This document shows positions 467 to 59,492 of a stretch of DNA of 59,492 nucleotides, piece after piece; position 1 is the stretch's first letter, and every line of letters begins with the position of its first letter. The notes beneath the pieces are model-generated. The model did no database searches. It was not told the DNA's origin and saw only the letters and a program-made list of their open reading frames with translations. Both the position numbers and the translations under genes were made by a program. The stretch lies in the NCBI GenBank assembly GCA_037445065.1, contig JBBILD010000021.1, positions 1 through 59,492 of the forward strand, written 5' to 3'. Origin of the DNA: Myxococcales bacterium. GTDB taxonomy: Bacteria; Desulfobacterota; Binatia; HRBIN30.

Positions 467-2113
467 CTAATCGAGATGTCCGCGCCAGACCTCAATAGAA
501 CCAAAAAAGCCCCGTTCCGGCGGTTTCACTGCCTCCGCCGGGGCAGCCGCCGGCTTCGCTTCCGGCTTGCGACCGAACAGGCGAGCGAAGAAGCCCGGCT
601 TTTCCTCCTTCGGCTCGGCCTTTTTCGCCAGCATGCCGCTGCGGAAGGTGGGCGGCAGCACGTCACCGAAGGCGACGCCGATGTCGAGCACGCCGTCGCG
701 GTCAATGTCCGTGAGGCCGACTCCCCAGGTACGCTCGCGCCCGTCGTGGGGGAGACCAGCGTCGGCAGGCACCATCGTGAAGTTCCCTTTGCCGTCGCCC
801 AAGAACACGTACACGCCGTACACCCCGCCGATCTCTTGTACATTCGTCTTTCCCGCCACGACCAAGTCGTTACGCCCGTCGTTGTTCATGTCACCGATTC
901 CGATCCCGAGCGCGTTCATGGGGGGCAGACCATGACCGTTCGACACCGGCGAGCACAGCCCTGGCGAGCAGCGATCCGAACGGGTCTCGGGGCTACAAGC
1001 CTCGCCTACGTTTTTGTGGAGCTGGCAACGAGGAGAAGGCGGTTCCGGCTGCCCAGGCCGTGGCGGACCGGTGCTGCAGTCGTCGTCTTGGAGGCACGCC
1101 ACGCCACGGTTGCCTTCGACGCAAATCCCTTTGCAAACGTGGCTTGTGCACGTGCCCCCTGGGCAGTCACCGTCCACAAAGCAGAACTTACCGTCCATAC
1201 TGCCGCCCACACACTGGCGTGAGTCGGTCGCGATGTATCCCCCTCCTTCGGTTTGCAAGAACACCTGCGGCCCGCGTGAAACATCTGTGGACGCTACGTC
1301 CGGACGGCCGTCGTGGTTGATGTCTCCAACGGCAATGCCCCAGAACAAGCCGTGTACTTCCGGGGCCGGCATACCCGCCGATGCTTCCTTCCACCCACCA
1401 GCACCGTCGCCCAGCCAGACTCGCGGCCCGGCCGAGTACGCCGCGATCACGTCGAGGTTGCCGTCGCCATTCATGTCCGCCACTGTCACGGAGTTGCCCC
1501 ACTCGGTAAAGGCCAAGCCCTGAGAACTCTCCTTCCACACGCCTTTGCAGTTACCCAAGAACGCGCGCACGCCTTCCTCTGACGCCGCCACGGTCACCAA
1601 GTCCAGGCACCCGTCCTTGTTGAAGTCTCCCAACGCAACGTCCTCGCACCCGATCGTGGGGAGGCCAGCAGAAGCGGTGCGCCAGTTGCCCGCGCCATCG
1701 CCGAGAAAGACAAACACGCCCTTGCAATGGTCAGCGATGGCTACATCCACGAAACCGTCGCGGTTCACGTCGCCGAAATCCATGCCACCACCGCAGAACG
1801 CTTCTCGTGGCAAGCCGTTCGAGGCATCCGTCCAATTGCCCTTGCCATCACCTTTCCAGATGTACGGGCCATCGGCCAAGCGCGAGACCGCACCTAGGTC
1901 CGCGAACCCATCGTTATTGATGTCACCAAAGGCAATTTGGCTCTTCCAAATCTTGCCGCTCGGCAAGCCGTTGCGCGCAGGCGAATAGCGGGGGAACTTC
2001 GCCACACCTTCGAGCTTGGCTGGCGCACTCGGCTTGCGGCTCGGGCAACCAGCCAGTGCAGCCACCGACAGCAGCAACAAGCCCCAACTCACACTGTCCC
2101 TAATATTCCTCAT
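467..2113 (-). CDS. FG-GAP/VCBS repeat beta-propeller lipoprotein with an inserted Cys-rich domain
   Basis: Seven GD(I/V/F/M)NxDGxxD-like repeats, lipobox LAGC and a 12-Cys insert. Start placed at ATG 2113, downstream of GAGGAG/GAGG. Confidence 0.8.
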   Translation of the reverse strand: MRNIRDSVSWGLLLLSVAALAGCPSRKPSAPAKLEGVAKFPRYSPARNGLPSGKIWKSQIAFGDINNDGFADLGAVSRLADGPYIWKGDGKGNWTDASNGLPREAFCGGGMDFGDVNRDGFVDVAIADHCKGVFVFLGDGAGNWRTASAGLPTIGCEDVALGDFNKDGCLDLVTVAASEEGVRAFLGNCKGVWKESSQGLAFTEWGNSVTVADMNGDGNLDVIAAYSAGPRVWLGDGAGGWKEASAGMPAPEVHGLFWGIAVGDINHDGRPDVASTDVSRGPQVFLQTEGGGYIATDSRQCVGGSMDGKFCFVDGDCPGGTCTSHVCKGICVEGNRGVACLQDDDCSTGPPRPGQPEPPSPRCQLHKNVGEACSPETRSDRCSPGLCSPVSNGHGLPPMNALGIGIGDMNNDGRNDLVVAGKTNVQEIGGVYGVYVFLGDGKGNFTMVPADAGLPHDGRERTWGVGLTDIDRDGVLDIGVAFGDVLPPTFRSGMLAKKAEPKEEKPGFFARLFGRKPEAKPAAAPAEAVKPPERGFFGSIEVWRGHLD

Positions 2114-2505
2114 CGACCTCGTACTCCTCTTCCCCCAAATTTTGCCGCCCACCCTCTAGCGGCCTGCTTGACCACTCGCGGACTGCGACTGCGGTCGCAG
2201 CGCTCTACCAAAGGCACCTCAGGGGCGCAAGTAATCGGGAAGCCTCGTGGCGCGCCGTTCGCCGCAGCACGCTCGCTCGATCGGTAGAAGGCTCGACAAC
2301 CGCGTCAGGCCGGAACCGCGCCGAGTTTCGACACCCTTGCTCTAGTGACAGCAGGAGCAGCTTTCGCCTCGAGGAGCATCGCCTTTGCACAGCGCAAGCG
2401 GAGCTCCCTGATGAACCAACCGGCGTTCGAGCCCCGAGCGCGCCGAACAATCGCCCAGAGCGGCAAAACAGACCGTTTTCTGTCGTACACCGCCCGCTTT
2501 TCAGC

Positions 2506-2670: not shown

Positions 2671-3858
2671 ATGCGTATGAAGAAGCGGCTTTGGGGATTG
2701 GGGACCTTCGGGCTCTCCGCTCTCGGCGTGTGGATGCTCGCCGGCGTGGTTCGAGCCCAAGAAGTTCGGCAAGCAACCACGGACCTGCCCGGTTCCATCG
2801 TCATCTTTCCAAAGGTGATCTGGAACGGAAGCGACAGAGACACAATCATCCAGATCAGCAACACGACGAACAATCTCACATTCTTGCACTGTTTCTACGT
2901 CAACGGCGCGCCGCGGAATCCGAGCTTACCACCGTCGGCAAGCAATCCGCCGGTATGGACGGTGACGGATTTTGAACTCATTCTTACGCGCCAGCAACCG
3001 ACGATGTGGGTGGCAAGTGCCGGCCGCCGGGTTGATTTTGGCAACCCGTTTGGCAGCTACGGCTCTGGTTACGATCCGGGGCTGATCCCTCCACTCCCGG
3101 CCGGGTTTACCGGCGAACTCAAGTGCATGGAGGTGGACTCGTCGGGTTCGCCGCTTCCGGGGAACCGCATCAAAGGCGAGGCAACGCTGGTCGGCCCGGG
3201 TGGAGATCTGACCACCTACAACGCCCTCGCCCTGCCGGCCAATCCACAGCCCCCTGGTACAGAGCTGGAACTGACGCTCACCGACAACAATCCAGGTGGC
3301 GAATTTGCGGCCTGTCCCGACACGATCATTTTCAACCACTTCGCGCACGGCGCCGACCAGATCGCGCTGAGTTCAGGGACCTCGCTCGGCGCTCAAAACC
3401 TCTGCGACGGTCCCGGCGGTTGTCCCGTGACCACCGAGTTGACCATGGTGCCTTGTTCGCAGGACCTTGAAAACGGCCGGCCCGGTAGAGTCACGGTTGG
3501 TTTCTTAATCTTCGATGAGTTCGAAGCTCGCCTGAGCGCAACCACCACTGTTGATTGCTGGTTCAACTTGCCGTTGAACCAAATTGCACCGGCTGGCCCG
3601 ACCAACCCATTCACGCCCGCCGCGATGGGCGGCTCCACAACTCGCCACACCCGCATCCGCCCGGCCCCGGGCCAAGGTGGTGTGCTGGCAATCGCAGAGG
3701 AAATCCGCATTACAGACCTGGGGCGCCCGGCGGGGCCGCTTACAACTTCCGCTTATAACTTGTACGTCCAGGGCAACCGATTCGATGGCGCGACCCAGGG
3801 CGATAACGATACCCCGGTTTCGGGCGTGACGGACGTCATTGTGGTTCCGGCCGAGTAG
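2671..3858 (+). CDS. Secreted protein of unknown function, paralog family member A
   Basis: AAGGAG RBS and signal peptide (VRA/QE). Family motifs GSIVIFPK, DTIIQISN, TDF..LTRQQP, GELKC, CP..NHF, VPCSQD, FDEFE are shared with four other ORFs. Confidence 0.85.
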   Translation: MRMKKRLWGLGTFGLSALGVWMLAGVVRAQEVRQATTDLPGSIVIFPKVIWNGSDRDTIIQISNTTNNLTFLHCFYVNGAPRNPSLPPSASNPPVWTVTDFELILTRQQPTMWVASAGRRVDFGNPFGSYGSGYDPGLIPPLPAGFTGELKCMEVDSSGSPLPGNRIKGEATLVGPGGDLTTYNALALPANPQPPGTELELTLTDNNPGGEFAACPDTIIFNHFAHGADQIALSSGTSLGAQNLCDGPGGCPVTTELTMVPCSQDLENGRPGRVTVGFLIFDEFEARLSATTTVDCWFNLPLNQIAPAGPTNPFTPAAMGGSTTRHTRIRPAPGQGGVLAIAEEIRITDLGRPAGPLTTSAYNLYVQGNRFDGATQGDNDTPVSGVTDVIVVPAE

Positions 3859-3904
3859 TGGCGTCATGGAGGGCCTTTTGGTGGTGAGGAAAGGAGACGA
3901 AGTG

Positions 3905-5146
3905 ATGAGCAACATGACGAGCAAACGGGCGTGGTTGACGCTGTGCGCCGTAGCGGCTGGGACCGCGCTGTTCGCGTCTGCCTCGGCGCGCGCCACGATC
4001 GGTTCGGACAGCTCCGGCGCGATCCTAGTGTTCCCTAAGATCGTGGTGGACACCAGTGGGCAGCTATTCGGTTTTCCGACCGATACGGAGGTCCAGATCA
4101 CCAATACGTCGAACTCCGTGATCGCGGCGCGGTGTTACTGGGTCAATGCGACGTCGCACTGCAGCAATAACCCGACACAAGCTTGCCGCCCTGAGACGGT
4201 GCAGGAAAACTGCGCGACGGGTGCGCGCTGCGTGGAGGGTTGGACGGAAACCGACTTTCGCTTCACGCTGACCAAGCGGCAGCCCATCTCGTTCAACGCC
4301 GCGGATGGCTTGCCCACCTTCCCGCTTTCTCAGCAGCAGGGCCCGGGAGGGCAGTCGAACGGATCGTCTTCCATCCCCCCGGTTCCTGAGGACCCGTTCA
4401 TTGGCGAGCTGAAGTGCGTCCAAGTAGATCCGAACGACTTTCGGCCCGCGATTGGTTTTAACCCAGCGAACAATGCTGCAGGCGATCTCGCCGGGCACGC
4501 CACGATCGTGACAGCGCTCCAGGCGGGTAATGTCACCGAAATCGATGCTCGCAAGTACAACGCGGTGACACTCAAGTCTACCACGGTCAACGACAACGAC
4601 GACACCCTAATCCTAGGTGGGCCGAACGCCGAGTACGACGGGTGCCCGAACGTTTGGGTGCTGAATCACTTCTTCGATGGCGCGGCTGTAGATGTCTGGT
4701 TTCTCAGTGGGCAACCGAATTTGACCCTCCGTTTCGCCACCGACCTCACTGTCGTACCGTGCAGCGAGGATTTCTTGCTGCAGGAAAACAACCTCGGCGG
4801 TGCGGTTCTTCAGTTCCTGGTTTTCAACGAGTTCGAGCAGCGCTTCTCGACTTCCACTCGCTTCACGTGCTTCCGCGAAGTGCAACTGTCGGATCTCGAC
4901 ACGCGCCCTGGCCCAGGTGACGACGCCTTCTCGATCTTTAACGTCAACGTGCAGGGAACCCTCTCTGGCCAAACCCGAATTCGCTCCGTTACAAGCGGGG
5001 ACCGCGCGAATGGCATCATCGCGGTGGCGGAACGGTTCGTCACCAACGCAGAAGGGATCCGCCCGAGCAGTGCGGAGAACGTACACTTCACCGGCTTCCG
5101 CAGCGGACTCGAAGATCGGATTATCTTGAGTCCCGACACTCCGTAG
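3905..5146 (+). CDS. Secreted protein of unknown function, paralog family member B
   Basis: AAGGAG RBS, signal peptide (ARA/TI), the same family motifs and a 4-Cys insert. Confidence 0.85.
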   Translation: MSNMTSKRAWLTLCAVAAGTALFASASARATIGSDSSGAILVFPKIVVDTSGQLFGFPTDTEVQITNTSNSVIAARCYWVNATSHCSNNPTQACRPETVQENCATGARCVEGWTETDFRFTLTKRQPISFNAADGLPTFPLSQQQGPGGQSNGSSSIPPVPEDPFIGELKCVQVDPNDFRPAIGFNPANNAAGDLAGHATIVTALQAGNVTEIDARKYNAVTLKSTTVNDNDDTLILGGPNAEYDGCPNVWVLNHFFDGAAVDVWFLSGQPNLTLRFATDLTVVPCSEDFLLQENNLGGAVLQFLVFNEFEQRFSTSTRFTCFREVQLSDLDTRPGPGDDAFSIFNVNVQGTLSGQTRIRSVTSGDRANGIIAVAERFVTNAEGIRPSSAENVHFTGFRSGLEDRIILSPDTP

Positions 5147-5165
5147 TGAAGCCGAGTCCATCCGC

Positions 5166-5205
5166 GAAAAGGGCAGAGGCGCTTTCCCCTCTGCCCTTTT
5201 CTTTT
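5166..5205 (+). terminator. Intrinsic terminator (possibly bidirectional) between paralogs B and C
   Basis: AAAAGGGCAGAGG-loop-CCTCTGCCCTTTT followed by CTTTT. Confidence 0.8.
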
Positions 5206-5237
5206 GCGGCTAGAATCGAGAGGCACAAATCACCAGG

Positions 5238-6287
5238 ATGAATCGCATGCTCCATTGGTTCCTGAGGGTCTCGCTGACTACCGGATTCGCTGCCACGCTG
5301 GCCTTGTCCTTGCCCGTTCTCACACACGCAGAGGTCAGCACCAGCCAGCCCGGGGCCATCGTCATCTTCCCCAAAATTATGCAGGACAGCACCATCGACA
5401 CGGTGATTCAGCTCGCCAATGCCACCGGGAGTGCCATCCTTTTGCAATGCCTGTACGTAAACGGGGCCCCGGACCCGGTGTCTGGAGAACCTCTGTGGAC
5501 GATCACTGATTTTCAAATTCGCCTCACTCGCCAACAACCGATCCTATGGGTTGCGGGTGAGGGGCTCGCCGCCGCACCGAGCGACGGCCGTCCGCTCGAT
5601 TTGCACCCCGGGCCCATCCCGCCAATCGCCGAGGGTTTCAAGGGCGAGTTGCGCTGCGTCGTGATTGACGAGCAAGAAAGACCGGTTTCGCGCAACGCGC
5701 TGACCGGTTGGGCGACCCTAATCGAGCGCGCAACCGGCGCCACGCGCAAGTACGCCGCGGTCTCTCTACGCGGGCTGGCAGCCAACAATGGTGACCTTTC
5801 CTTGGCGCTCAACGACATCGAGTACAGTTCGTGCCCGCGGATCCTCCTCCTCGATCATTTTTACGAGGAGGCACCGGACCCGATCTTGGGCACCCCGATT
5901 CGTTCCTCCATCACCTTCGTGCCTTGCAGTGCCGATTTCGAGCGTGCCGTGCCCGGCCATTCGACCCTGTTGTTCGAGACGTTCAACGAGTTCGAGCAAC
6001 GCACTTCTGCGAGCCTGGAGGTCACTTGCTTTGCTGATGTACCGCTCTCGAACATCGACAGCGCCGCCAATCCGGAGCGGTCGATCTTTCATTACTCCGT
6101 GCAAGGAACGCTTACCGGCCAAACACGCATTCGGCCCGTTCCGGATCGTTCGATTCCCTTCGGCCGGGGTGTGGTGGCAGTCGCCGAAGAGTTCCGCAAC
6201 AACGGGGCCGCCGCCAGCGCGATGAACCTTCATTTCATTGGAGGTTCGTTGCAAAGTGACCTGATCGTTTTGCCACCGAGCTTTTAA
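5238..6287 (+). CDS. Secreted protein of unknown function, paralog family member C (minimal core)
   Basis: Signal peptide (THA/EV); motifs GAIVIFPK, GELRC, VPCSAD, FNEFEQR, QGTLTGQT. Confidence 0.85.
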   Translation: MNRMLHWFLRVSLTTGFAATLALSLPVLTHAEVSTSQPGAIVIFPKIMQDSTIDTVIQLANATGSAILLQCLYVNGAPDPVSGEPLWTITDFQIRLTRQQPILWVAGEGLAAAPSDGRPLDLHPGPIPPIAEGFKGELRCVVIDEQERPVSRNALTGWATLIERATGATRKYAAVSLRGLAANNGDLSLALNDIEYSSCPRILLLDHFYEEAPDPILGTPIRSSITFVPCSADFERAVPGHSTLLFETFNEFEQRTSASLEVTCFADVPLSNIDSAANPERSIFHYSVQGTLTGQTRIRPVPDRSIPFGRGVVAVAEEFRNNGAAASAMNLHFIGGSLQSDLIVLPPSF

Positions 6288-6356: not shown

Positions 6357-8582
6357 TCACGGCTGCACTGCAACCCGAGAAGCGGCGCCTGAGTCCGAGA
6401 GCCCAACTAGGGTCAGTTGTAACCTCGCCTCCGTTTCGGCCGGATTCGTGCGGTTGCTCACCGCCAAGTCCACAGACCAGCAGTCGCAACGCGACAACAG
6501 GCGAAGCCCAGCGTAGTTTTCTAGAAAGCGGCGGGCTGGGACGTTGTACCGAGTGGCGTACGTAACCCCGATCCAGTCTGTGAGGCGAAGGACCACGTTA
6601 CCGTCCACTTGCTGCAGCACGTTGTTCGCCAATAGGCGGTACGCCACACCAGCGCTGGTACGCGTTTGCAATCGCCTGCCGATCTCTACGTCTGGCTGAC
6701 GAGGATCTTCCACGAAAAGAGCGATTTGCGAGGAACTGAACTCGGCGGAGCCCGAGTCAAAGCTCCCCCACCAGCGGAACGACAAGAACCGGCTCGGCTG
6801 CACGCGGGTTATGACGTCCACATCCGAGAAATGCGACTCGGATTGGCGTGCGGCAAGCCGCGGGATCTGGCGAGAAAGGTCGTAACTCTGCAAAAGGGAG
6901 ATGCGGCCGAGTTCGCGAATCTCGCCCGCGGAACTTGCTTGGCCCTGCCCTTCCTCGGTTGCAAAGCGACCGAGCAGACGGCTGGTCACGCCAAAGCTCA
7001 ATACATTGCGCCGATTTACCCGATCGAAGGCCTCGAAAAAGGGCAAGTCCTGCTGGTCTGTGGAGGACACGTACGCGTACGAAGCAAGCGGCTCGATCGT
7101 GTGTTTCACCCGCTGCAAGCCCAGGTGCGGAAACGCATACACTCGCTGCAAGCTCGTACCCACCTCGGCTCGCAGGTCCACCTGTTGGCGTGTGCTGGTC
7201 TCGGCCAGGTCGGTGCCCCCAGCCAGCGCCGCCCGCTCGCGCAAAGCATAGACGCGCCCGAGCAAGCCCAGCGAAATCTCGCCGCGAAGGTAGCGCTGCG
7301 TGGGAGGGAAAAGTGTCAGCACCGGGTGCGCCAGCCAGCGGCTCCCGGTGGGACCCTGTCCCCTTTCGAACTCCGACCACTCAGCTCCCCACTCCAAAAG
7401 GGACCACCGCCAGATCGGTACTTGCCCGTTCGCAGCCAACCGGGGAGCCACCTGAACGGTACGCGATTCGATCCGGTCGGAGAGGTTCTGGTAATACTGC
7501 CCTTCCAGGCCAGCGAGGAATCGGTCGCCAACATACAGGCCTCCCAGCCGGGTGAGCGTATACGGCAACGTGCGGTACAGAATCGTGCGGCCCCTCTCGA
7601 ACGCGTAGGTGTTGATCTCGCGAAAAAACCGATCGTCGCTCACCAGCAGCGCATCGGAGTACAGGCGCACTCGCTCAGCCGGACGCTCGTGTTGTTCCGC
7701 GGCCAGGCTCCAGCGATCCTGCGGTGCACCGCCGGGCCCGGTGGAGCCACGAAACAGATCATTGAAATAACTTGCCGCCAGCGTACCGCCGGTGGTGCGG
7801 CTCGAGCGGTAGCGGTATTCAGCAATGCCGCCCAAACGAGCAGCAGTTTCTAAATCCAAACCAATTGTGGCTTCTCGCGTTGGACCCATCGCCCAATAAA
7901 ATGGGAGCACAGTTTGGAAGCCCCGCTCGTTCGAGAGACCGAAGCGCGGGAAGAGGAAGCCGCTTTGCCGTTCGCGTTCCACTGGCACGATGGCACGGGG
8001 GAGGTAAAGCACGGGCACGTCGAGCACGAGGAATCTGGCCCCTTTCGCGATCCCATACCCACCAACCGTGACATCCAACTCCTGGGCCGTGATGGTCCAG
8101 CTCTGGCGCCCCTTCTCGCACCGGCAGGTGGTGAAGCGACCATTCACGATTCGAAAGCTCTGGCCCTCGCGCTTTTCGATCCGGCTTCCCCACAGCGAAT
8201 ATTGCATGCGGCGGGAGAGTAACGCCGCACCAACGAGCGCACCCGTCTCTTCCTCCAAGTTCAACTCGACTGAATCGGCAAACAGCGTCCCTTCCGGGTC
8301 GTACACCTCGACTCCGCCGTGCGCCTCCACCATGGGCACGGCGCGGTGCAAAATGACTTCCTGGGCACGCACTTCGGTATCGCCATACCGGATCACCACG
8401 TTGCCACTGGCGATCACCACATCGCGATCTCGATCATAGGTGATCTCTGCTGCATCTACCTGTACGGGCAGCTTTTCCGTGCCCTCGATCTCAGCCGCAA
8501 CGCTCGCCGCTCCGATGCCGGTCAGAGCAAGGAGCACGAGACACAAGCAGACACAGCAACGAGGGTTCTCAATCAACGGCAC
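6357..8582 (-). CDS. lptD: LPS assembly protein LptD
   Basis: OstA-like N-terminus (ASGNVVI), FTTC, RQSGFLFP, KHTIEP, C-terminal CDCW barrel end; follows folC. Start uncertain. Confidence 0.85.
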   Translation of the reverse strand: MPLIENPRCCVCLCLVLLALTGIGAASVAAEIEGTEKLPVQVDAAEITYDRDRDVVIASGNVVIRYGDTEVRAQEVILHRAVPMVEAHGGVEVYDPEGTLFADSVELNLEEETGALVGAALLSRRMQYSLWGSRIEKREGQSFRIVNGRFTTCRCEKGRQSWTITAQELDVTVGGYGIAKGARFLVLDVPVLYLPRAIVPVERERQSGFLFPRFGLSNERGFQTVLPFYWAMGPTREATIGLDLETAARLGGIAEYRYRSSRTTGGTLAASYFNDLFRGSTGPGGAPQDRWSLAAEQHERPAERVRLYSDALLVSDDRFFREINTYAFERGRTILYRTLPYTLTRLGGLYVGDRFLAGLEGQYYQNLSDRIESRTVQVAPRLAANGQVPIWRWSLLEWGAEWSEFERGQGPTGSRWLAHPVLTLFPPTQRYLRGEISLGLLGRVYALRERAALAGGTDLAETSTRQQVDLRAEVGTSLQRVYAFPHLGLQRVKHTIEPLASYAYVSSTDQQDLPFFEAFDRVNRRNVLSFGVTSRLLGRFATEEGQGQASSAGEIRELGRISLLQSYDLSRQIPRLAARQSESHFSDVDVITRVQPSRFLSFRWWGSFDSGSAEFSSSQIALFVEDPRQPDVEIGRRLQTRTSAGVAYRLLANNVLQQVDGNVVLRLTDWIGVTYATRYNVPARRFLENYAGLRLLSRCDCWSVDLAVSNRTNPAETEARLQLTLVGLSDSGAASRVAVQP

Positions 8583-9885
8583 GCTCTTGGGAGAAATCGC
8601 GATCGCTGCTTAGCCGCGCCTGCAAAGCGGTTTGCCGCACAGCGCCGAGTAAGAACAACGAGCCAGTCACCACCACCGCTTCCTCCGGACCGCAAGCAGC
8701 CAGCACAGCGCGGAAGGCGCGGAGCGGGTCTTCCTCCACCCGCACGGGCGCGTACTGTGCCCAAGCCGGAACCAGCATCTGGGGCCGAGCGGCGCGCCGG
8801 ATCTGCGGAGCAGTCAAAGTCACCGTTGTACAGAGCGGTCCCAACTCGGGAGCCATCGCCTGCCAGTCCTTGTCCGCCATGACCCCGAACAACAGGTGTA
8901 CTCTTCCCGCTAAGCCTCGCCGACGGATCTCGTCCGCGAGACAACGCACGCCGGGAAGATTGTGAGCCCCATCCAAGATTACCAGTGGCGATTCGCACAC
9001 GACCTCCCAGCGACCCGGCCAGCATAGTTGTTGCAAACCCCGAACGACCGCACCTTCGTGCGGCCGCAACGCCTCTGGCAGGCAGCGCAGTGCAGAGACC
9101 GCCACGGCGGCGTTGTCGCACTGGTGCAAGCCGCGCAAGGCAAGCGCTCCGACCTGCACTTCTCCAGCACGATCGCGAAACACCCAATCCGAGTCGCTCC
9201 CCGTCCACGAGAAATCCCTGCCAAGCCAGCGACTGGGTGCCCCTCGTTCCGCTGCCGCTGCTTCGATGACCGCAGCCGGGCCCGGATCCACGCGTCCCAC
9301 CACGACCGGTTTGCCCGGCTTGATGATCCCCGCTTTCTCGGCCGCAATGCTCTCCAACGTGCTGCCCAAGAATTCCTGGTGGTCAAGGCCAATGGAGGTG
9401 ATGACGGACACGGCCGGATCGACCACATTGGTTGCATCGAGCCGGCCCCCTAGGCCCACCTCCACCACCGCGGCCTCTACCTCTCGCTCTACGAAGTACA
9501 GGAAGGCAAGCACGGTGGTGAACTCGAAAAACGTGAGTTCAATCCCACGCACGGTAGAGGCCCGATGCACCACGGCCGCCAGTCGCACGACCTCGGCTGG
9601 TGAAATCTCCTCTCCCGCGACGCGGATTCGTTCCGAGAAGCGCACGAGATGGGGGGAGGTGTAGAGCCCGGTGCGAACCCCATGGAAACGTAGAGCTGCC
9701 TCCACCATGGCCGCCACCGATCCCTTGCCGTTGGTGCCAGCAATGTGCACCACCGGGTACCGGCGATGCGGCTGGCCACATTCCTCAAGCACCAGTTCGA
9801 TGCGCTCGAGCTTGAAATCCATCCCCCGCCGCGCCTCGAGCGCATAGAGCCAATCGAGAAGTCGTTCGTATTCCGCGAACGCCAC
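8569..9885 (-). CDS. folC: Dihydrofolate/folylpolyglutamate synthase
   Basis: HIAGTNGKGS, YTSPHL, EVGLGGRLDATN, LDGAHN, GSLFL. Confidence 0.97.
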   Translation of the reverse strand: MAFAEYERLLDWLYALEARRGMDFKLERIELVLEECGQPHRRYPVVHIAGTNGKGSVAAMVEAALRFHGVRTGLYTSPHLVRFSERIRVAGEEISPAEVVRLAAVVHRASTVRGIELTFFEFTTVLAFLYFVEREVEAAVVEVGLGGRLDATNVVDPAVSVITSIGLDHQEFLGSTLESIAAEKAGIIKPGKPVVVGRVDPGPAAVIEAAAAERGAPSRWLGRDFSWTGSDSDWVFRDRAGEVQVGALALRGLHQCDNAAVAVSALRCLPEALRPHEGAVVRGLQQLCWPGRWEVVCESPLVILDGAHNLPGVRCLADEIRRRGLAGRVHLLFGVMADKDWQAMAPELGPLCTTVTLTAPQIRRAARPQMLVPAWAQYAPVRVEEDPLRAFRAVLAACGPEEAVVVTGSLFLLGAVRQTALQARLSSDRDFSQERAVD

Positions 9886-9891
9886 GCCTCC

Positions 9892-10758
9892 TCATCCTTC
9901 CGCGCAACTGGCCCAGCGCCCTCGGGACGCGCCCGCCACTGCTGTTTTGAGCGAACGCACGAACTCCCCCACTACTTGCTCCAAGTCGGCGCGGTCGCGG
10001 TGCTGATCCACCAGGCGCATGAGCGCACTGCCCACGACCACCGCGTCAGCGAATTCCGCCACCGCTGCCGCCTGCTCGGTGGTCGCGATCCCAAAGCCCA
10101 CGCCTACAGGCAGGTCGGTCTCGGCACGCAGCCGCTGCACCACTGGTCGCACTTCGGCCGGCTGGATCGGCTTGGCACCGGTGACACCGGTGACCGAGAC
10201 GTAGTAAATGAACCCCGCTGCCCGCGACAGCACAAGCTGAACCCGGTCCGGGCCACTGGTAGGCGCGAGCAAGCAAACAAAGTGAATGCCCGCAGGCTCG
10301 GTGCACTGCAACAGCTCATCGGCCTCTTCCGGAGGCAGGTCCACCACCAAAATGCCGTCCACCCCGGCGGCAGCCGCATCGCGCGCAAACGCCGCTGGCC
10401 CGTAATGAAAAATTGGATTGTAGTATCCGTACAACACAATCGGCGTGTGCGAGATGCGCCGGAACTCTGCTACCACGTCGAACGCCACGGGAAGGGTAGC
10501 TCCGCTTTGCAGCCCGATGTGCAGGGAGCGCTGCAACACGGGACCATCAGCGGTGGGATCGGAAAACGGCACCCCGAGTTCGATCAGATCCGCTCCCGCC
10601 TCGTCCACTACGCGCAGCAGGCGCCTGGTGGCATCCACACTCGGATCACCAAGGGTCAGGAACGGGACAAACGCTGCTTCTCCCTGTTCGCGCAAGCGCG
10701 CAAACACTCGGTCAATTCGATTGTCCCGCTGCTCGGGATGGCGCCGCCGACGGCTCAC
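9892..10758 (-). CDS. trpA: Tryptophan synthase alpha chain
   Basis: [38 protein letters not shown]. Confidence 0.98.
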
Positions 10759-11948
10759 AACTGCACTCCGAACGCGGAGGCTACCGTGTTCATATCCTTG
10801 TCGCCTCTGCCAGAAAGATTCACCACGATGATTTGTTCCGGACCCAGCCGACGCGCAAGATCGGCTGCGTACGCGACTGCGTGCGCGCTCTCCAAGGCGG
10901 GGATGATCCCTTCGGTTTGCGAGAGCAGTTGGAAGCCTTCCAGAGCTTGATCGTCGGTCACCGCCACGTACTGCGCGCGCCCGGTGCTGTGCAGGTAGGC
11001 GTGTTCAGGACCCACCCCCGGGTAGTCGAGTCCTGCCGAGATCGAATGAGCCGGGCGAACCTGGCCGGTTTCGTCCTGCAAGATAAAGGTCTTCTTTCCA
11101 TGCAACACCCCGATCGAGCCAGCACTGATCGAGGCGGCGTGCTGGCCGGAGGCCAGCCCTCTACCGCCGCCTTCGACGCCGACCAGGCGCACGCTAGCGT
11201 CGTCTAGGAAGGGATAGAACATCCCCATGGCGTTACTGCCCCCGCCCACACACGCCACCAGGTAGTCCGGCAATCGCCCTTCGCGCTGCAGAATCTGCCG
11301 CCTCGTCTCGCGGCCAATGACCGACTGAAAGTCGCGCACCATCATTGGGTAGGGATGCGCGGACATGGTGGACCCAACGAGGTAGTACGTGGTTTCTACG
11401 TTTGTCACCCAGTCCCGCAAGGCTTCATTGATGGCGTCCTTCAACGTCGCGCTACCAGAGGAAACGGGATGCACCTGTGCCCCAAGAAGCTTCATGCGGA
11501 ACACGTTCAACGACTGGCGGCGCACATCTTCGCTTCCCATGAACACTTCGCAGCGGATGCCAAACAGCGCTGCCACGGTGGCAGTGGCCACCCCGTGCTG
11601 GCCCGCTCCGGTCTCCGCGATGATGCGGCTTTTCCCCATGCGCCGCGCCAGCAGGGCTTGGCCCAAGGCGTTGTTGATCTTGTGCGAGCCGGTGTGGCAC
11701 AGGTCCTCGCGCTTCAAGTAGATCTTCGCGCCGCCCAAGTGACGCGTGAGGCGCTCGGCGAAATACAGCGGCGTCTCTCGACCCGCGTAGTCCCGCAAGT
11801 ACGCACCCAGCTCTCGGCGGAATCCAGGATCGCGCCGGATGCGCCGGTATGCGGCCTCGAGCTCGAGCAACGCTGGCATGAGAGTTTCGGCCACATAGCG
11901 CCCTCCAAAGACGCCGAAGTGCCCGCGTCGGTCAGGCAGTCTTTGCAT
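10755..11948 (-). CDS. trpB: Tryptophan synthase beta chain
   Basis: [46 protein letters not shown]. Confidence 0.99.
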
Positions 11949-51242: not shown

Positions 51243-51279
51243 AAAAAAGGGACCGGGTGCTACAAGCACCCGGTCCCTT
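51243..51279 (-). terminator. Intrinsic terminator after paralog B'
   Basis: Minus strand AAGGGACCGGGTGC-TTGTA-GCACCCGGTCCCTTTTTT. Confidence 0.85.
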
Positions 51280-51315: not shown

Positions 51316-52458
51316 TCACAAACCAGACGGCTGCGCAGCGGGCAGCAAAATGATGTCTGCTTGGGTGCGAATCCCCCGTTGGTGAACATTCGACGCGTTC
51401 GAAAAGGCCGCCTGACCTGCCGTGTGGAACTCCTCGGTAATCGCCAACAGCCCCGTGCCCCGCACCGGATCGTTGGTCTGAACTCCACGCACGATGGTCT
51501 GGCCGGTTAAGGTTCCCTGCACCGCCACGTTGAAGATCGAGAACGCATCGTCTCCGGTTCCGGGCCGCGTATCGATATCAGAGAGCGCGATTTCCTGGAA
51601 GCAGGTCACGCTACGGCTCGTCGAGAAACGCTGCTCGAACTCATTGAACACCAGGTACTGCGCCACCACGCTCCGCGGGGCCTGGAAGTTGAAGTCCTGC
51701 GAGCACGGCACAAGGGTGAGATCCGTTCGAATGGTCGGGCTTCCAACGACCCGCGGGCCCGCGCCGTCGAAGAAGTGATTCAGCAACAACAAGTTCGGGC
51801 AGCCATTGTACTCTGCACCTAGGACCAGCGTATTGTCGCGGTTGTTCGCGCCTTCGATGGCCTGGATGCCGATGGCGTTATAGCCGCGCACATCCACACC
51901 TTCCTGGATGGTGGCTTCACCCTTGAGCCAGTTTTGATCCACCGGCAACTCGTCGTCCCCAACTTGCACGCATTTGAGTTCCCCCACCATTGGATCGTCC
52001 GGGGAAGGCGGAATGCTGCCCGAGTTAAACTCACCCTTGGGCCCAGGCTGATTCGCAAGGGGCAGATCCGGCAACCCGTCCCGAACCGAAAACACGATGG
52101 GCTGCTTCGAGGTCAGGCGGAACGCAAAGTCCGTCTCTTGCCATCCGGGAACGCAAAAGCCCGGCTGCGAGCAGGTGTTGGGGCCATTCGGATTACACAC
52201 CTCGAACGGAGCACTCGAACAGCGACCGTTCGCGTTTACGTAAAAGCAGCGAACGTTGACTGGCTGATTTTCAACGTTCGAAATCTGAATCAGGGTATCC
52301 ACTCCGTTGCTGGAATCCACCACGACTTTCGGGAACACCAGAATTGCCGCCGGATTCGTGGAAGACACGTCGGCCCGCAACGCGCCAACCCCGAACCCCA
52401 AACCGGCCAGCAGCCCCAACGCTCCAGTCCCTTTCCGCATCCAGTTGACCGTACGCAT
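51316..52458 (-). CDS. Secreted protein of unknown function, paralog family member B'
   Basis: AAGGAG RBS, signal peptide (LRA/DV), family motifs and a 4-Cys insert; DTRPG.GDDAFSIFNV is shared with member B. Confidence 0.85.
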   Translation of the reverse strand: MRTVNWMRKGTGALGLLAGLGFGVGALRADVSSTNPAAILVFPKVVVDSSNGVDTLIQISNVENQPVNVRCFYVNANGRCSSAPFEVCNPNGPNTCSQPGFCVPGWQETDFAFRLTSKQPIVFSVRDGLPDLPLANQPGPKGEFNSGSIPPSPDDPMVGELKCVQVGDDELPVDQNWLKGEATIQEGVDVRGYNAIGIQAIEGANNRDNTLVLGAEYNGCPNLLLLNHFFDGAGPRVVGSPTIRTDLTLVPCSQDFNFQAPRSVVAQYLVFNEFEQRFSTSRSVTCFQEIALSDIDTRPGTGDDAFSIFNVAVQGTLTGQTIVRGVQTNDPVRGTGLLAITEEFHTAGQAAFSNASNVHQRGIRTQADIILLPAAQPSGL

Positions 52459-52518: not shown

Positions 52519-53598
52519 TTACTCGCGCGGGGCTAACAAGATCGTGTCCGGCCCGTTTGGCGGGATGAAGCTTCCCGTGGTATGGAGACTGTGCATGACC
52601 GTCCCTTGACTTCCGCCAGTCGAAACGAACCGCCGAGCCACACCAATCACGCCGCCAGAGTCACCATTCGGCTGTACAACCGGAGTGATCTCGGTCATCG
52701 CTACGGTCGTGCCAAGCACCGTATCAGAGAAAACAGAGTTGTTGAGCCCACCAAAGTCCAGCGTATTCAGGAACTGCGACAGATAGCAAGTCACCGTGGT
52801 GCTCGCCGAGAAGCGCTCCTCGAATTCGTTCCAAACCAAGAACTGCACAGTTACCGACTTTGGCTGCTGATTCTCCAAGTCCTGGGCGCAAGGGACCAAC
52901 GTCAATTCCGTCAACGCCCTGCCCCCGCCATGCTCGGCGTCCTCAGCAAAGTGATTGAGCCAGAGCTTTTCAGGGCAAGCGGCGTAGACTTCGCCGTCCA
53001 ACACCAGCGGATTCGAGGGCTGCGCGTCCGGGTTGGCCTCGATGCCAATGGCGTTGTAACGCGAGGTATCTCCAGACGAGGCTACCAGCACCGCCGAGCC
53101 CCGCAGGTGGTTTCCAGCCACCGGCTCACCCGATGCCGTAACCTCAACGCACTTAAGTTCGCCCTCGAAGTCCGGCTTCGGAGGAATGTGGCCGGGATCG
53201 AAACCGGATCCGTCGTTGCCGATCCCATCCGTGAGGTCCACCTGCCGCCCATTGGCCACCGACCAGTGCGTCGGCTGCTGTCGGGTGAGCCATATGTCAA
53301 AATCCGTCTCTTGCCACAAAGCCTGGCATGTTGCGCTCGGGCGCGAACAGCGCTGACCCGTCACAACATCGAACAGCCGCGCATCAATGTAATTGCAGTG
53401 CGCCTGAATCAGCGAGTTGCTCGTGTTGACAATTTGGATGATCGTATCCTCGGACGCAGAAGCGACCACCTTTGGAAAGACGAGGACCGAAGCCGCCTTC
53501 TCCGACGTCACGTCAGCCCGCGCTGCCGACGTCAAGACCCCCAGGACGACGGCGATCCCAAGTCCCGAGAGGAATCCATCCCACTTCACCATTCGCAT
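52519..53598 (-). CDS. Secreted protein of unknown function, paralog family member A'
   Basis: AAGGAGGAGG RBS, signal peptide (ARA/DV), family motifs; G.DPG.IPP and QDLEN are shared with member A. Confidence 0.85.
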   Translation of the reverse strand: MRMVKWDGFLSGLGIAVVLGVLTSAARADVTSEKAASVLVFPKVVASASEDTIIQIVNTSNSLIQAHCNYIDARLFDVVTGQRCSRPSATCQALWQETDFDIWLTRQQPTHWSVANGRQVDLTDGIGNDGSGFDPGHIPPKPDFEGELKCVEVTASGEPVAGNHLRGSAVLVASSGDTSRYNAIGIEANPDAQPSNPLVLDGEVYAACPEKLWLNHFAEDAEHGGGRALTELTLVPCAQDLENQQPKSVTVQFLVWNEFEERFSASTTVTCYLSQFLNTLDFGGLNNSVFSDTVLGTTVAMTEITPVVQPNGDSGGVIGVARRFVSTGGSQGTVMHSLHTTGSFIPPNGPDTILLAPRE

Positions 53599-53891: not shown

Positions 53892-55250
53892 TCAGGCACG
53901 AACGATCTTTTCCCGACCCGCACGCACTTCCTTGGTCGCGTTACGCGTGTCGATGACGAGCCTGCTCTTGGCAACGATGAACTCATAATCGAATACGGAG
54001 TGATCCGTCGCGATCACCACCGCATCCGCTCGCTCCAACTCATCACGTGTCAGCGGCACAGAGGACATGTTAAAATCATATTTCCGCGATCGCTTCAAGA
54101 CCGGAACGTACGGATCGTGGTAACTGACCCGCGCACCTTTTTGCAAAAGAAGTTCGATGAGTCGCAAGGCCGGCGATTCGCGCGTGTCATCCAGATCCTT
54201 TTTATATGCGACCCCCAAAACCAGCACCCGTGCGCCTTTGATACTTTTTTGCTGTTCGTTGAGTGCATCCGCGAGCTTTCCAATCACGTACGCCGGCATG
54301 CTGTGATTGATCTCGCCGGCTAACTCGATGAAGCGGGTGGTCAGCTCGTACTGGCGCGCCTTCCAGGTAAGGTAAAAAGGATCGATCGGGATACAGTGCC
54401 CCCCCAGTCCAGGCCCGGGGTAAAACGGGGTGAAGCCAAACGGCTTGGTGGCAGCCGCGTCAATCACTTCCCACACATCGATCCCCATCCGGTCGAACAG
54501 GACCTTCAGTTCGTTGACCAGCGCGATGTTCACACACCGGTAGATGTTTTCCAGCAGCTTTGCCGCCTCCGCGACACGCGCAGAACTCACCGGGACTACC
54601 TTTTCCAACACCGATGCGTACAGGGCCACGGCCACTTCTCCGCAGGCCGGCGTGACTCCGCCCACTAGTTTGGGGATGTTACGCGTCCGAAACGTTGGGT
54701 TGTTTGGGTCTTCCCGCTCAGGAGAAAACGCCAAGTAAAAGTCCACGCCGACCCGTAGCCCCGATGCCTCCAGGATCTCCCGTACCACTTCATCGGTGGT
54801 CCCTGGGTAGGTGGTACTCTCCAGCACCACGAGTTGGCCTGGATGCAGGTTCTGGGCAATCGTGTGGGCGGTGCCTTCCACGTACGAAAGGTCCGGATCT
54901 CGGTTTGCACTGAGCGGTGTGGGGACACAAATCAGCGCGGCGTCGCAAAGCTGCAGTTGCGAAAAATCTGCGGTCGGTAAAAAGCGCCCGTCGCCCCGCG
55001 ACACGCTCTCCCGAGCCAGGATTTGCTTCAATCGTTCAGACGGGATATGGCGGATGTAGCTGCGCCCCGCCTTCAACTCTTCCACCTTGCCTCGGTCCAC
55101 ATCGAAGCCGATGACCGAGACTCCGCCCTCGGCAAAGGTCGCTGCTAGCGGCAAACCGACGTAGCCGAGACCGATGATCCCCACGATCCCCTGCCGCGAA
55201 CGGAAGCGGTCAATGACTTCGTCGAATGAAGGACGTTCTGGCACTGGCAC
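53892..55250 (-). CDS. Nucleotide-sugar 6-dehydrogenase (WbpA/WecC-like, likely UDP-GlcNAc)
   Basis: GLGYVGLP, ICVPTP, ESTTYPGTT, FSPER.DP, KLLEN, GGHCIPIDP, D.RESP. Confidence 0.93.
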   Translation of the reverse strand: MPVPERPSFDEVIDRFRSRQGIVGIIGLGYVGLPLAATFAEGGVSVIGFDVDRGKVEELKAGRSYIRHIPSERLKQILARESVSRGDGRFLPTADFSQLQLCDAALICVPTPLSANRDPDLSYVEGTAHTIAQNLHPGQLVVLESTTYPGTTDEVVREILEASGLRVGVDFYLAFSPEREDPNNPTFRTRNIPKLVGGVTPACGEVAVALYASVLEKVVPVSSARVAEAAKLLENIYRCVNIALVNELKVLFDRMGIDVWEVIDAAATKPFGFTPFYPGPGLGGHCIPIDPFYLTWKARQYELTTRFIELAGEINHSMPAYVIGKLADALNEQQKSIKGARVLVLGVAYKKDLDDTRESPALRLIELLLQKGARVSYHDPYVPVLKRSRKYDFNMSSVPLTRDELERADAVVIATDHSVFDYEFIVAKSRLVIDTRNATKEVRAGREKIVRA

Positions 55251-56831: not shown

Positions 56832-56881
56832 GCCCCTTTCCTCCTGCCTCATGGCCATCTCGATACCAATCCACACGCTCT

Positions 56882-59428: not shown

Positions 59429-59492
59429 AACTTCCTCCTTGACACTCTCCACCTCAACGTGCCCCCCTCGCGCCCCAAGGCACCACGCCACC

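Follow-up and report, generated by a model that had tools for sequence, protein, structure and literature searches.

Paired secreted proteins of Binatia as a candidate two-part, NpdA-like surface layer

The 59,492-nucleotide stretch of Binatia DNA analysed here (the window) carries two clusters of related, apparently secreted proteins, in each of which an A gene precedes a B gene, and it raises the question of what such pairs would build outside the cell. A sequence-only reading of the window had proposed a new, five-member S-layer, sheath or filament system. We examined the family across genomes, its predicted fold and complex, and its relationship to known surface-layer proteins.

A fifteen-gene family with a conserved A-B order

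A check of the sequence found all five ORFs of Table 1 open, and they are mutual paralogues (29-49% identity, BLASTP E-values from 7e-33 to 1e-107) with 51 columns invariant across the five proteins in an alignment that contains the motifs of the sequence-only reading in their listed order. The Sec signal peptides that it had described were likewise borne out: by eye, each protein appears to begin with a basic N-region, a hydrophobic stretch and an A-x-A site, and the cleavage-site Ala is invariant in the alignment. The mature parts contain no hydrophobic segments, as expected from its claim that a TM anchor is absent, and their computed pI of 4.5-4.8 is acidic in a way typical of S-layer proteins. 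Pfam and NCBIfam scans gave no match above cut-off for the five proteins, and the family was not found described in the literature searches made.

Table 1. Features of the two A-B clusters and their surroundings in the window.
Feature	Coordinates	Strand	Description
Subunit A1 (P0001)	2671..3858	+	395 aa; putative signal peptide and two tandem, predicted ASRAH-like beta-sandwich domains
AAAGGAG ribosome site	upstream of A1
Subunit B1 (P0002)	3905..5146	+	413 aa; 4-Cys insert in domain 1; predicted A1 partner
Intrinsic-terminator-like hairpin, B1/C gap	5166..5205	+	14-bp stem at 5166-5201, then T-run; RNA fold
Subunit C (P0003)	5238..6287	+	349 aa; minimal member, small clade of its own on the B side
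Subunit A2 (P0004)	52519..53598	-	359 aa
Subunit B2 (P0005)	51316..52458	-	380 aa
Strong terminator-like hairpin after B2	51247..51279	-	15 pairs
FG-GAP repeat protein	467..2152	-	left flank of locus 1, MsbA-like exporter beyond; context
LptD (LPS assembly), then FolC	6357..8582	-	right flank of locus 1; context
Nucleotide-sugar dehydrogenase	53892..55250	-	upstream of locus 2; context

The family is larger than the five members first proposed. Sixteen matches in the genome represent 15 genes (six A, six B, one C and two divergent D), since the end of contig C19 and the start of contig C17 overlap by 129 bp at 97.7%; apart from this overlap, blastn searches with the two contig ends turned up no second, nearly identical copy. 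The proposed grouping of A with A' and B with B' is recovered in a 286-row tree, with 157 rows in clade A (support 97) and 121 in clade B (support 99), and the 4-Cys insert given as a mark of the B type is present in both B1 (Cys 86/94/103/109) and the B' protein B2 (Cys 80/88/96/102). Subunit C had been described as a minimal hybrid placed after a terminator. The terminator stands, its hairpin being absent from the output of a simple terminator scan and found by folding, but the hybrid does not: clade C (6 rows, support 100) joins B at a weak support of 78, so C branches off on the B side and is not a demonstrated hybrid. C occupies locus 1 in three of six genomes, which with the hairpin agrees with an optional subunit.

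The family is matched in all 31 of the 31 genomes of the order, and the A-before-B order seen in the window proved to be conserved. Across six genomes from four families, 41 of 43 A ORFs are directly followed by a B; one exception lies at a contig end and the other involves an A gene broken into two ORFs that overlap. Arrays alternate A and B strictly, with 15 B-A junctions and a single A-A junction, which is the split gene. B genes without an A do exist (a B-B pair in L033, L037, and the last B of L024). Among the fetched homologues, the eight multi-module fusion chains all combine one A-type with one B-type unit, with no A+A or B+B fusion. Most members stand alone without a catalytic or anchor domain; in others, as in Acidobacterial relatives, the module forms the C-terminal end of a large passenger protein. 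The passengers fused in the family are propellers, FG-GAP, dockerin-like or Thr/Pro-rich stalks.

The left flank of locus 1 (FG-GAP/MsbA-like) is kept in 5/5 other genomes and the right flank (LptD/FolC) in 4/5; the MsbA-like exporter and LptD, between which locus 1 lies, would fit an LPS-dependent layer, yet both are on the opposite strand and their proximity may be passive synteny. A nucleotide-sugar dehydrogenase lies near an A-B pair in 4/5 other genomes. The genome's type II secretion (T2SS) cluster, on contig C2, is unlinked to the family genes, and no gsp gene lies beside them in four G000 contig neighbourhoods or in the 77 of 118 called neighbours scanned. A promoter scan detected no sigma-70-like promoter. 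By codon index, used as a proxy for expression, eight of 14 family genes exceed the 93rd percentile and the window's A-B-C genes fall at 43-61; GroEL, the positive control, reached only 14-24.

A predicted ASRAH-like fold and closed A-B complex

The AlphaFold2 model is all-beta, with two beta-sandwich domains (pLDDT 94.8), in keeping with the beta-rich secreted proteins anticipated from the sequence. In a wide VIA structure search, domain 1 matched TM1070 with a Z of 13.4 and an rmsd of 1.8 over 106 of 116 residues; the ASRT Z was 8.6 and the next structural match reached 6.6. Foldseek returned generic sandwich matches alone, at low TM (0.12-0.19). Domain 2 may be inferred to be ASRAH-like from the repeated strand order and an NpdA-like model (see below); an internal-repeat test found nothing between the two domains by sequence (0.17%). 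An outer-membrane barrel or autotransporter, suggested by the C-terminal passenger fusions, was rejected, as the model consists of two sandwiches.

ASRT/TM1070, of the ASRAH superfamily (PF07100; PDB 1NC7, 2II7), has the eight-stranded sandwich in common with the Binatia family. The Asn that closes ASRAH strand 2 is present in domain 1 in 100% of 124 sequences, and Pro-Cys stands at the equivalent site of domain 2. In contrast, the strand-1 Trp is missing, this strand reading G-S-I-L-V-F-P-K with Trp reaching 6% at one position and falling outside the top residues at the others, and the ASRT pocket signature SHEshChhN does not occur, His and Cys being replaced by conserved Asp (98%) and Gln (94%) when counted back from the Asn. 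A sequence link to ASRT was not found: PF07100 matched neither the five proteins nor the genome, with a positive Thermotoga control, and hhalign gave 0.2% against a single-sequence template of low power. ASRAH domains form dyads or tetrads, TM1070 being a tetramer, and three ASRAH families have been described, namely intracellular solo, amidase-fused and actinobacterial lipoprotein (PMC2739507). None shares the Binatia architecture, which would comprise two ASRAH domains in each chain and, as predicted, four in each A-B pair.

The complex prediction for A1+B1 scored 0.93 in three runs, against 0.00 for the best of three controls; the runs share at least 95% of contacts, with a partner pLDDT of at least 87. 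Solved pairs attain the score mark in 116 of 157 cases and mismatched pairs in 2 of 215, figures that hold only roughly because we used our own alignments. In the model, the four domains close into a pseudo-two-fold unit reminiscent of the ASRT tetramer. Its pseudo-symmetry is reflected in the interface, where both chains contribute at 59 of 87 columns (p 2e-33); invariant polar residues are also over-represented there (10/87 vs 6/182, p 0.012). The A/B heteromer proposed earlier is thus upheld as a prediction. Obligate heteromery is not implied, because subtype-specific residues are not enriched in the interface (3/87 vs 4/182, p 0.68) and close cousins likewise pass the complex-prediction test.

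These features also suit a different role, in which lectin-like heterodimers, soluble or tethered to the surface, would serve as ASRAH glycan-binding units and passenger attachment tags, fixing A-B units to LPS, matrix or substrate without a crystalline layer, with paralogues diversifying the ligands. ASRAH domains have been proposed to bind sugars, the cleft lying at the dimer interface (PMC2739507); the Asp, Gln and Asn in the pocket register are conserved, and the Asp and Gln fall inside the predicted interface. A closed predicted dimer, a module carried at the end of large passengers in Binatia and Acidobacteria alike, and fifteen stable paralogues would all fit a binding repertoire. Nevertheless, the prevalence of stand-alone members argues against this role, sugar-uptake and hydrolase genes are not recurrent in the neighbour scan, where housekeeping or envelope genes make up most of the flanks, and the closest relatives of tested function are S-layer proteins. 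We therefore regard it as unlikely.

An indirect link to NpdA-type S-layer proteins

The resemblance to G.VL.(F/Y)PYY-type surface proteins, which the sequence-only reading had loosely noted, leads to the NpdA-type S-layer family. As judged by profile comparison, the link to NpdA is transitive, running through two bridging families. A2 matched the bridge family A5 at 97.3%, and A5 matched the motif family A6 at 98.1%; against a Delftia-type set, A6 gave about 100% and the bridge family 92.5%. Domain 1 of A2 without its signal matched A6 at 85.7%, a similarity that is in part circular because A6 was chosen by motif; strands 7-8, outside the selecting motif, gave 62.7% vs 0.4% for a reversed control. 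When compared directly with the 19-sequence Delftia-type set, the domain 1 profile scored 1.8% and the domain 2 profile 0.2%; against A6, domain 2 scored 1.3%. No PDB entry matched A1, A2 or A6 by sequence. The A6 model has the parallel strand order, and its first match is TM1070, through A6 domain 2 (Z 8.5, rmsd 2.4, 109 aligned).

The Delftia-type set was taken as NpdA from names, signal length and context; orthologues were defined by BLASTP in the NpdA paper. One of the set, P0515, is a probable NpdA orthologue: it groups with 'cell surface protein [Delftia tsuruhatensis]', its signal is 25 residues long, and its gene is located downstream of a gsp cluster, the position described for npdA (PMC10765051). 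NpdA itself is reported to lack conserved domains (PMC10765051).

NpdA (Delftia acidovorans Cs1-4 and Paracidovorax citrulli; PMC3110197, PMC10765051) is, like the Binatia proteins, secreted and without a Pfam domain. Both have the N-terminal pattern G-x-V-L-x-F/Y-P, D/T-x-x-x-x-x-N, D-F-x-x-x-L, both are modelled with a parallel two-domain strand order and TM1070 as top match, and NpdA-like genes also form tandem paralogue arrays. With such relatives and an ASRT/ASRAH-like fold, a reading of the family as a new system without known relatives is not supported. The differences are also clear: Binatia mature chains have about 330-380 residues vs about 470-490 in NpdA, carry conserved cysteines, and come as two fixed subtypes in A-B pairs vs one lattice protein, with 15 copies at ancient fixed loci; npdA lies beside a gsp cluster, and the Binatia genes do not.

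Other S-layer systems offer looser comparisons. Tannerella TfsA/TfsB are two co-encoded lattice proteins, and the sap genes of Campylobacter fetus form a multi-copy S-layer gene set; both, compared by description only, involve several paralogous or co-encoded genes as in Binatia. The Binatia loci are scattered, 29-49% identical and orthologous across four families, unlike a sap-type switching cassette, which is unlikely here. TfsA/TfsB are named among S-layer proteins (PMC10765051). The nearest named cluster by language-model score (0.78) is Slr4 of Pseudoalteromonas (PF19526), a lead only, with the name Slr4 on 22% of its members; PF19526 gave no match for the five proteins at E up to 1, and a genome search was silent, as were its controls. 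Fifteen family genes, set beside the one or two proteins of most known S-layers, as stated for archaea (PMC5744192), count against an S-layer reading.

The NpdA precedent bears on two further alternatives. One is that the chains form S-layer-like homo-oligomers, the A-B order being an ancient tandem duplication frozen by co-regulation, or that they form two layers. NpdA is reported to build its lattice from a single polypeptide (PMC3110197), Simplicispira is reported to carry a double S-layer (PMC10765051), lone B genes occur, and the predicted interface is mostly made of residues shared by both chains, without enrichment of subtype positions; the strict A-B alternation and the consistently mixed fusions nevertheless render this improbable. 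A filament or sheath, with A/B units joined end to end as fibres or as a tube enclosing cells, is slightly more improbable still: the chains are all-beta, Cys-rich and secreted, and NpdA makes nanopod tubes around vesicles (PMC3110197), but the predicted dimer is closed, using both domain-domain faces symmetrically, the terminal D-x-I strand is not named in its interface, which leaves a filament built by strand donation unsupported, and pilin, usher and amyloid-type folds are absent among the top fold matches.

A proposed heteromeric coat and its possible meaning

On balance, and with moderate confidence, we favor an NpdA-like S-layer that is heteromeric, is built from several paralogues and doubles as a display platform for passenger domains. 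Each chain would be exported by Sec and fold into two ASRT/ASRAH-like sandwiches, and one A and one B would pair head-to-tail (A-D1 with B-D2, A-D2 with B-D1), closing into a four-domain unit that resembles the ASRT/TM1070 tetramer. The type II secretion system encoded in the genome may carry the folded pair across the outer membrane. By analogy with NpdA, whose sheet assembly is reported to require LPS (PMC3110197), the conserved Asp/Gln cleft at the ASRT ligand-pocket register could bind LPS or another surface glycan, and A-B units could pack sideways into a lattice. The six ancient A-B pairs at fixed loci would be different tiles, used jointly or depending on conditions, and C, the D pair and the passenger-fused copies would be minor tiles, the last perhaps displaying their propellers, FG-GAP, dockerin-like domains or stalks.

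Our searches found nothing on the surface layer of Binatia, an uncultured group, and no work linking S-layers to TM1070/ASRT. A bolder proposal, which we hold as tentative and rather doubtful, is an order-wide combinatorial mosaic S-layer of at least six ancient A/B tiles, ASRAH pseudo-tetramers with glycan clefts, in which the same module plugs into large adhesin-like passengers as a display tag; it would include chains with a membrane-anchored B plus a second, signal-bearing A. If true, Proteobacterial NpdA S-layers and related Acidobacterial surface modules would join one ASRAH-fold superfamily, and a lattice made from many versions of an obligate heterodimer, with natural fusions to passengers, would represent a novel S-layer architecture that could readily serve as a scaffold for display. 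The analysis offers a fold for the NpdA-type S-layers, for which sequence comparison gives no relative of solved structure. The A-B family names a likely Binatia coat and gives it a concrete building unit; where the known bacterial coat uses one protein, this version probably uses two.

Size, distribution and gene order of the family

The five ORFs that the sequence-only reading had called in the window as one secreted family are correctly placed and stop-free, share pairwise identities of 29-49% (E <= 7e-33) and carry all of the motifs listed for them in the order proposed. Judged by eye from sequence, each has an N-terminus like that of a signal peptide, with A-x-A as its last residues. The mature regions have no hydrophobic segment. 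Pfam and NCBIfam scans of the five proteins gave no match above cut-off. The terminator proposed ahead of C corresponds to a 14-bp hairpin with a T-run, which came from RNA folding and was missed by the terminator scan; a 15-pair hairpin lies 3' of B2.

Coordinates of family ORFs and associated features (window positions unless a locus, L, or protein, P, is named)
Feature	Position	Strand
A1 (locus 1)	2671-3858	+
B1 (locus 1)	3905-5146	+
Hairpin and T-run between B and C	5166-5205	
C (locus 1)	5238-6287	+
B2 (B', locus 2)	52458-51316	-
A2 (A', locus 2)	53598-52519	-
Cohesin-like and propeller proteins	55269-59491	-
Thr/Pro/Ser-rich proteins, contig C7	L250:31-4835 and 8523-11363	
Transposase-like ORF	L250:5769-6809	
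Split family genes, genome G020	L017:8181-9435 and L020:7559-8696	
npdA-like gene neighbourhood	L249:599-5434	
Between-module region, P0125	about 440-530	
Between-module region, P0152	about 430-490	

The family proved larger than the five members first claimed. Sixteen matches lie across five contigs of the genome; because two of them are halves of a single gene at the ends of contigs C19 and C17, which overlap by 129 bp at 97.7%, they amount to 15 genes (six A, six B, one C and two of the divergent D subtype). The order ilvE, A-B-A-B, gshB across this break is found uninterrupted in another genome (G008). In a survey of the order, every one of the 31 genomes gave matches, 10-27 apiece (match numbers, not copy numbers). 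With only 9-13 candidates scored per genome, a class sample gave matches in 29/29 same-order genomes and, weakly, in 1 of 171 others, and a phylum sample gave none in 149 genomes outside the order. A representative library yielded 1968 clusters at E <= 0.001, 150 of them among the matches listed. Named homologues are mostly hypotheticals of Ca. Binatia, HR30 or Deltaproteobacteria, and a literature search covering few subscription journals found no paper on the Binatia family.

A FastTree tree of 286 units splits four ways: A (157 rows, support 97), B (121 rows, support 99), the D pair, and C (6 rows, support 100), which is placed with B at a support of 78. Genes in cluster regions from five well-assembled genomes of four families were typed with subtype HMMs partly built from the very genomes typed. 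As had been proposed, A directly precedes B, for 41 of the 43 A ORFs (six genomes with the present one); of the other two, one is at a contig end and one is broken into a pair of overlapping ORFs. Arrays take the forms A-B, A-B-C, A-B-A-B or longer, and D-D; the first gene is A in 27/36 clusters, D in 6 and B in 3, which all come from G019 and include one at a contig end, and B occurs without A at L033, L037 and L024. In genome G020, two family genes are split into overlapping ORFs by frameshift or assembly error, the arrays being otherwise whole.

The family loci are old. With 77 of 118 called neighbours scanned, locus 1 borders on FG-GAP and MsbA-like genes in 5/5 other genomes and has LptD-FolC on its opposite flank in 4/5; a nucleotide-sugar dehydrogenase near locus 2 and the ilvE-linked A-B-A-B array each recur in 4/5. 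Two proteins are encoded upstream of locus 2 (matches below curated cut-offs): one is cohesin-like and MYXO-CTERM-like, the other is a propeller protein that bears dockerin-like repeats. The genes immediately upstream of the A-B-A-B array on C7 encode three very long Thr/Pro/Ser-rich proteins; their N-terminus is dockerin-like and they have an unnamed C-terminal domain in common. By eye, a similar domain ends the fusion P0141. Also by eye, an ORF among these genes resembles a REP-associated tyrosine transposase.

Fold and predicted A-B assembly

The AlphaFold2 model of mature C (124 rows; pLDDT 94.8, pTM 0.92) is all-beta with two domains. Foldseek returned generic sandwiches only; a wide structure search found TM1070 (Z 13.4, rmsd 1.8, 106 of 116, model residues 6-148) and ASRT (Z 8.6), the next match reaching 6.6. 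In the accessible text of De Souza et al. (PMC2739507), the ASRAH domain is defined by a Trp in strand 1 and an Asn in strand 2, His25 and Cys29 line a ligand cleft located where the dimer has its interface, and the domains occur as dyads or tetrads. The Asn is invariant in the Binatia family, whereas the Trp is missing and the His and Cys registers are filled by Asp (98%) and Gln (94%). Since the fold matches TM1070/ASRT but there is no Trp, and a search for a sequence link to PF07100 found none, the modelled fold is ASRAH-like, short of established membership. Glycan-binding dimers outside any lattice are a reading that we regard as unlikely, though worth keeping in mind, beside the S-layer proposed below.

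Eight two-module chains were found among 273 fetched proteins plus 11 genome ORFs, each with one A-type and one B-type module, including the A-B fusion P0141. In P0125 and P0152, divergent chains from metagenomic records, one ORF runs from B through a Thr/Pro linker, a MYXO-CTERM-like anchor with basic tail and a signal-like stretch to A, a sequence suggesting a possible polyprotein that would yield anchored B and released A. Five passenger chains, of which four have a lipoprotein-like signal at their start, combine only the N-half of A with a complete B; the half-domain assignment is thin for P0242 (35 vs 34 and 28 bits). Further chains carry a single module before or behind propellers, FG-GAP repeats, CARDB or EF-hand/dockerin-like tails. 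Fusion records are mostly single and metagenomic, with two members for P0212, two contigs for P0152 and three for P0157.

With its own subtype alignment for each chain, A1+B1 scored 0.93 in three runs (best control 0.00). About 310 contacts were predicted, the runs agreed on at least 95% of them, and the partner pLDDT was at least 87; the score mark was reached by 116/157 solved complexes and 2/215 mismatches, counts that are only roughly valid with custom alignments. The tightest predicted contacts are those of A domain 2 (281-283, 324-326) with B Gln126-Pro127 and of A 362-365 with B 217-219. As 59 of the 87 interface columns are used by both chains (p 2e-33), the A-B unit is predicted to be a tetrad that is closed and pseudo-two-fold. 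This predicted interface is enriched in polar invariants (p 0.012) but not in all invariants together (19/87 vs 30/182, p 0.31). The A/B heteromer claimed earlier finds support in gene order, fusions and the predicted complex, but not in subtype-specific positions, which are unenriched there (p 0.68). Because cousins can also pass the complex test, ASRAH tetramers have been solved, a likeness that the A1+B1 pass may partly reflect, and the score covers the A1+B1 pairing rather than homodimers, the case for heteromery rests on gene order and fusions above the score. Homo-oligomers we consider improbable.

Relationship to NpdA S-layer proteins

The sole weak match outside the order led to P0274, whose family occurs in other Binatia and reaches 97.3% against the Binatia profile over domain 1; the P0274 profile reaches more tandem-array families within the class. 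A further related family, with the motif P-A-A-T-L-L-L-P-Y-F-E-V, is found in other Binatia as 2-4 genes in tandem (L045-L055; G307, G021, G260, G263, G208, G229, G275, G027, G316, G266, G306), coexisting with the A/B family in G021, G027 and G316.

The resemblance to G-x-V-L-x-(F/Y)-P-Y-Y proteins, noted in the sequence-only reading, proved fruitful, leading to the motif-selected, mostly proteobacterial family A6. Compared with the Binatia profile, A6 scores 96.7% when signal peptides are included and 85.7% when they are removed; strands 7-8, which lie outside the motif, give 62.7% (0.4% for the reversed control), and domain 2 gives only 1.3%. Its model has a parallel strand order and likewise has TM1070 as its top match, via domain 2, at a Z of 8.5, not far from values that may reflect a common arrangement alone. 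A scan of GTDB genomes for G-x-V-L-x-F/Y-P-Y-Y-T gave at least 134 stretches (chance estimate roughly 35); the matches listed are mostly from Proteobacteria, often in arrays, and the gene upstream was a T2SS secretin in 4/4 loci scanned there. Motif-carrying genera include Dokdonella, Ca. Nitrotoga, Wenzhouxiangella, Tahibacter and Rhodanobacter, npdA carriers according to the accessible part of PMC10765051.

An A6 search finds P0515, whose cluster holds a 'cell surface protein [Delftia tsuruhatensis]'. Its 25-residue signal and upstream gsp cluster are as described for npdA in the same part of PMC10765051, and it is probably an NpdA orthologue; the npdA accessions in that part are absent among the P0515 cluster matches listed. 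Two results speak against NpdA membership of the Binatia family: its profile matches P0515 and relatives directly at only 1.8%, and the T2SS cluster of the genome is unlinked to family genes. The P0274-type family matches the same Delftia-type set at 92.5%. In the accessible part of PMC3110197, NpdA is an SDS-resistant oligomer that forms a tetragonal layer from a single polypeptide and requires LPS for assembly.

Relatives with S-D-Q-K-x-G-S-V-L-x-F-P-Y-Y occur at L076 and L106 (Acidobacteriota records), L169 and L180; some are C-terminal modules behind other domains, and, compared with the proteobacterial proteins, they score nearer the Binatia profile. Downstream of npdA-like genes, adjacent or one gene further on, comes a PPIase gene, often with ABC-2 (Wzm/Wzt-like) transporter genes (L249, L071, L083, L090), possibly a folding and glycosylation module of NpdA S-layers. 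Some Proteobacteria have arrays of 3-5 NpdA-like paralogues (G685, G704, G776; L127-L133).

A proposed surface layer

A filament or sheath is the least likely arrangement, and a very doubtful one. The analysis established signals for secretion, the division into two subtypes, the fixed order of A and B, chains in which the two are fused, the fold of domain 1 and an unlinked T2SS. In the heteromeric, NpdA-like S-layer that we favour, A and B would be exported through the T2SS, assemble as the predicted tetrad, bind LPS or glycan at the Asp/Gln cleft, pack into a lattice and display passengers; C, with a terminator ahead of it, a weak ribosome site and a presence in 3/6 genomes, would play a minor role. 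On a codon index, 8 of 14 family genes rank above the 93rd percentile, but A, B and C of locus 1 only at 43-61 and GroEL, a positive control, at 14-24. Such a heteromeric layer is in our view probable: the family would act in the manner of an NpdA-type S-layer protein with an ASRT-like fold, but it departs from NpdA in direct similarity and T2SS linkage, and from ASRAH in the missing Trp and profile link.
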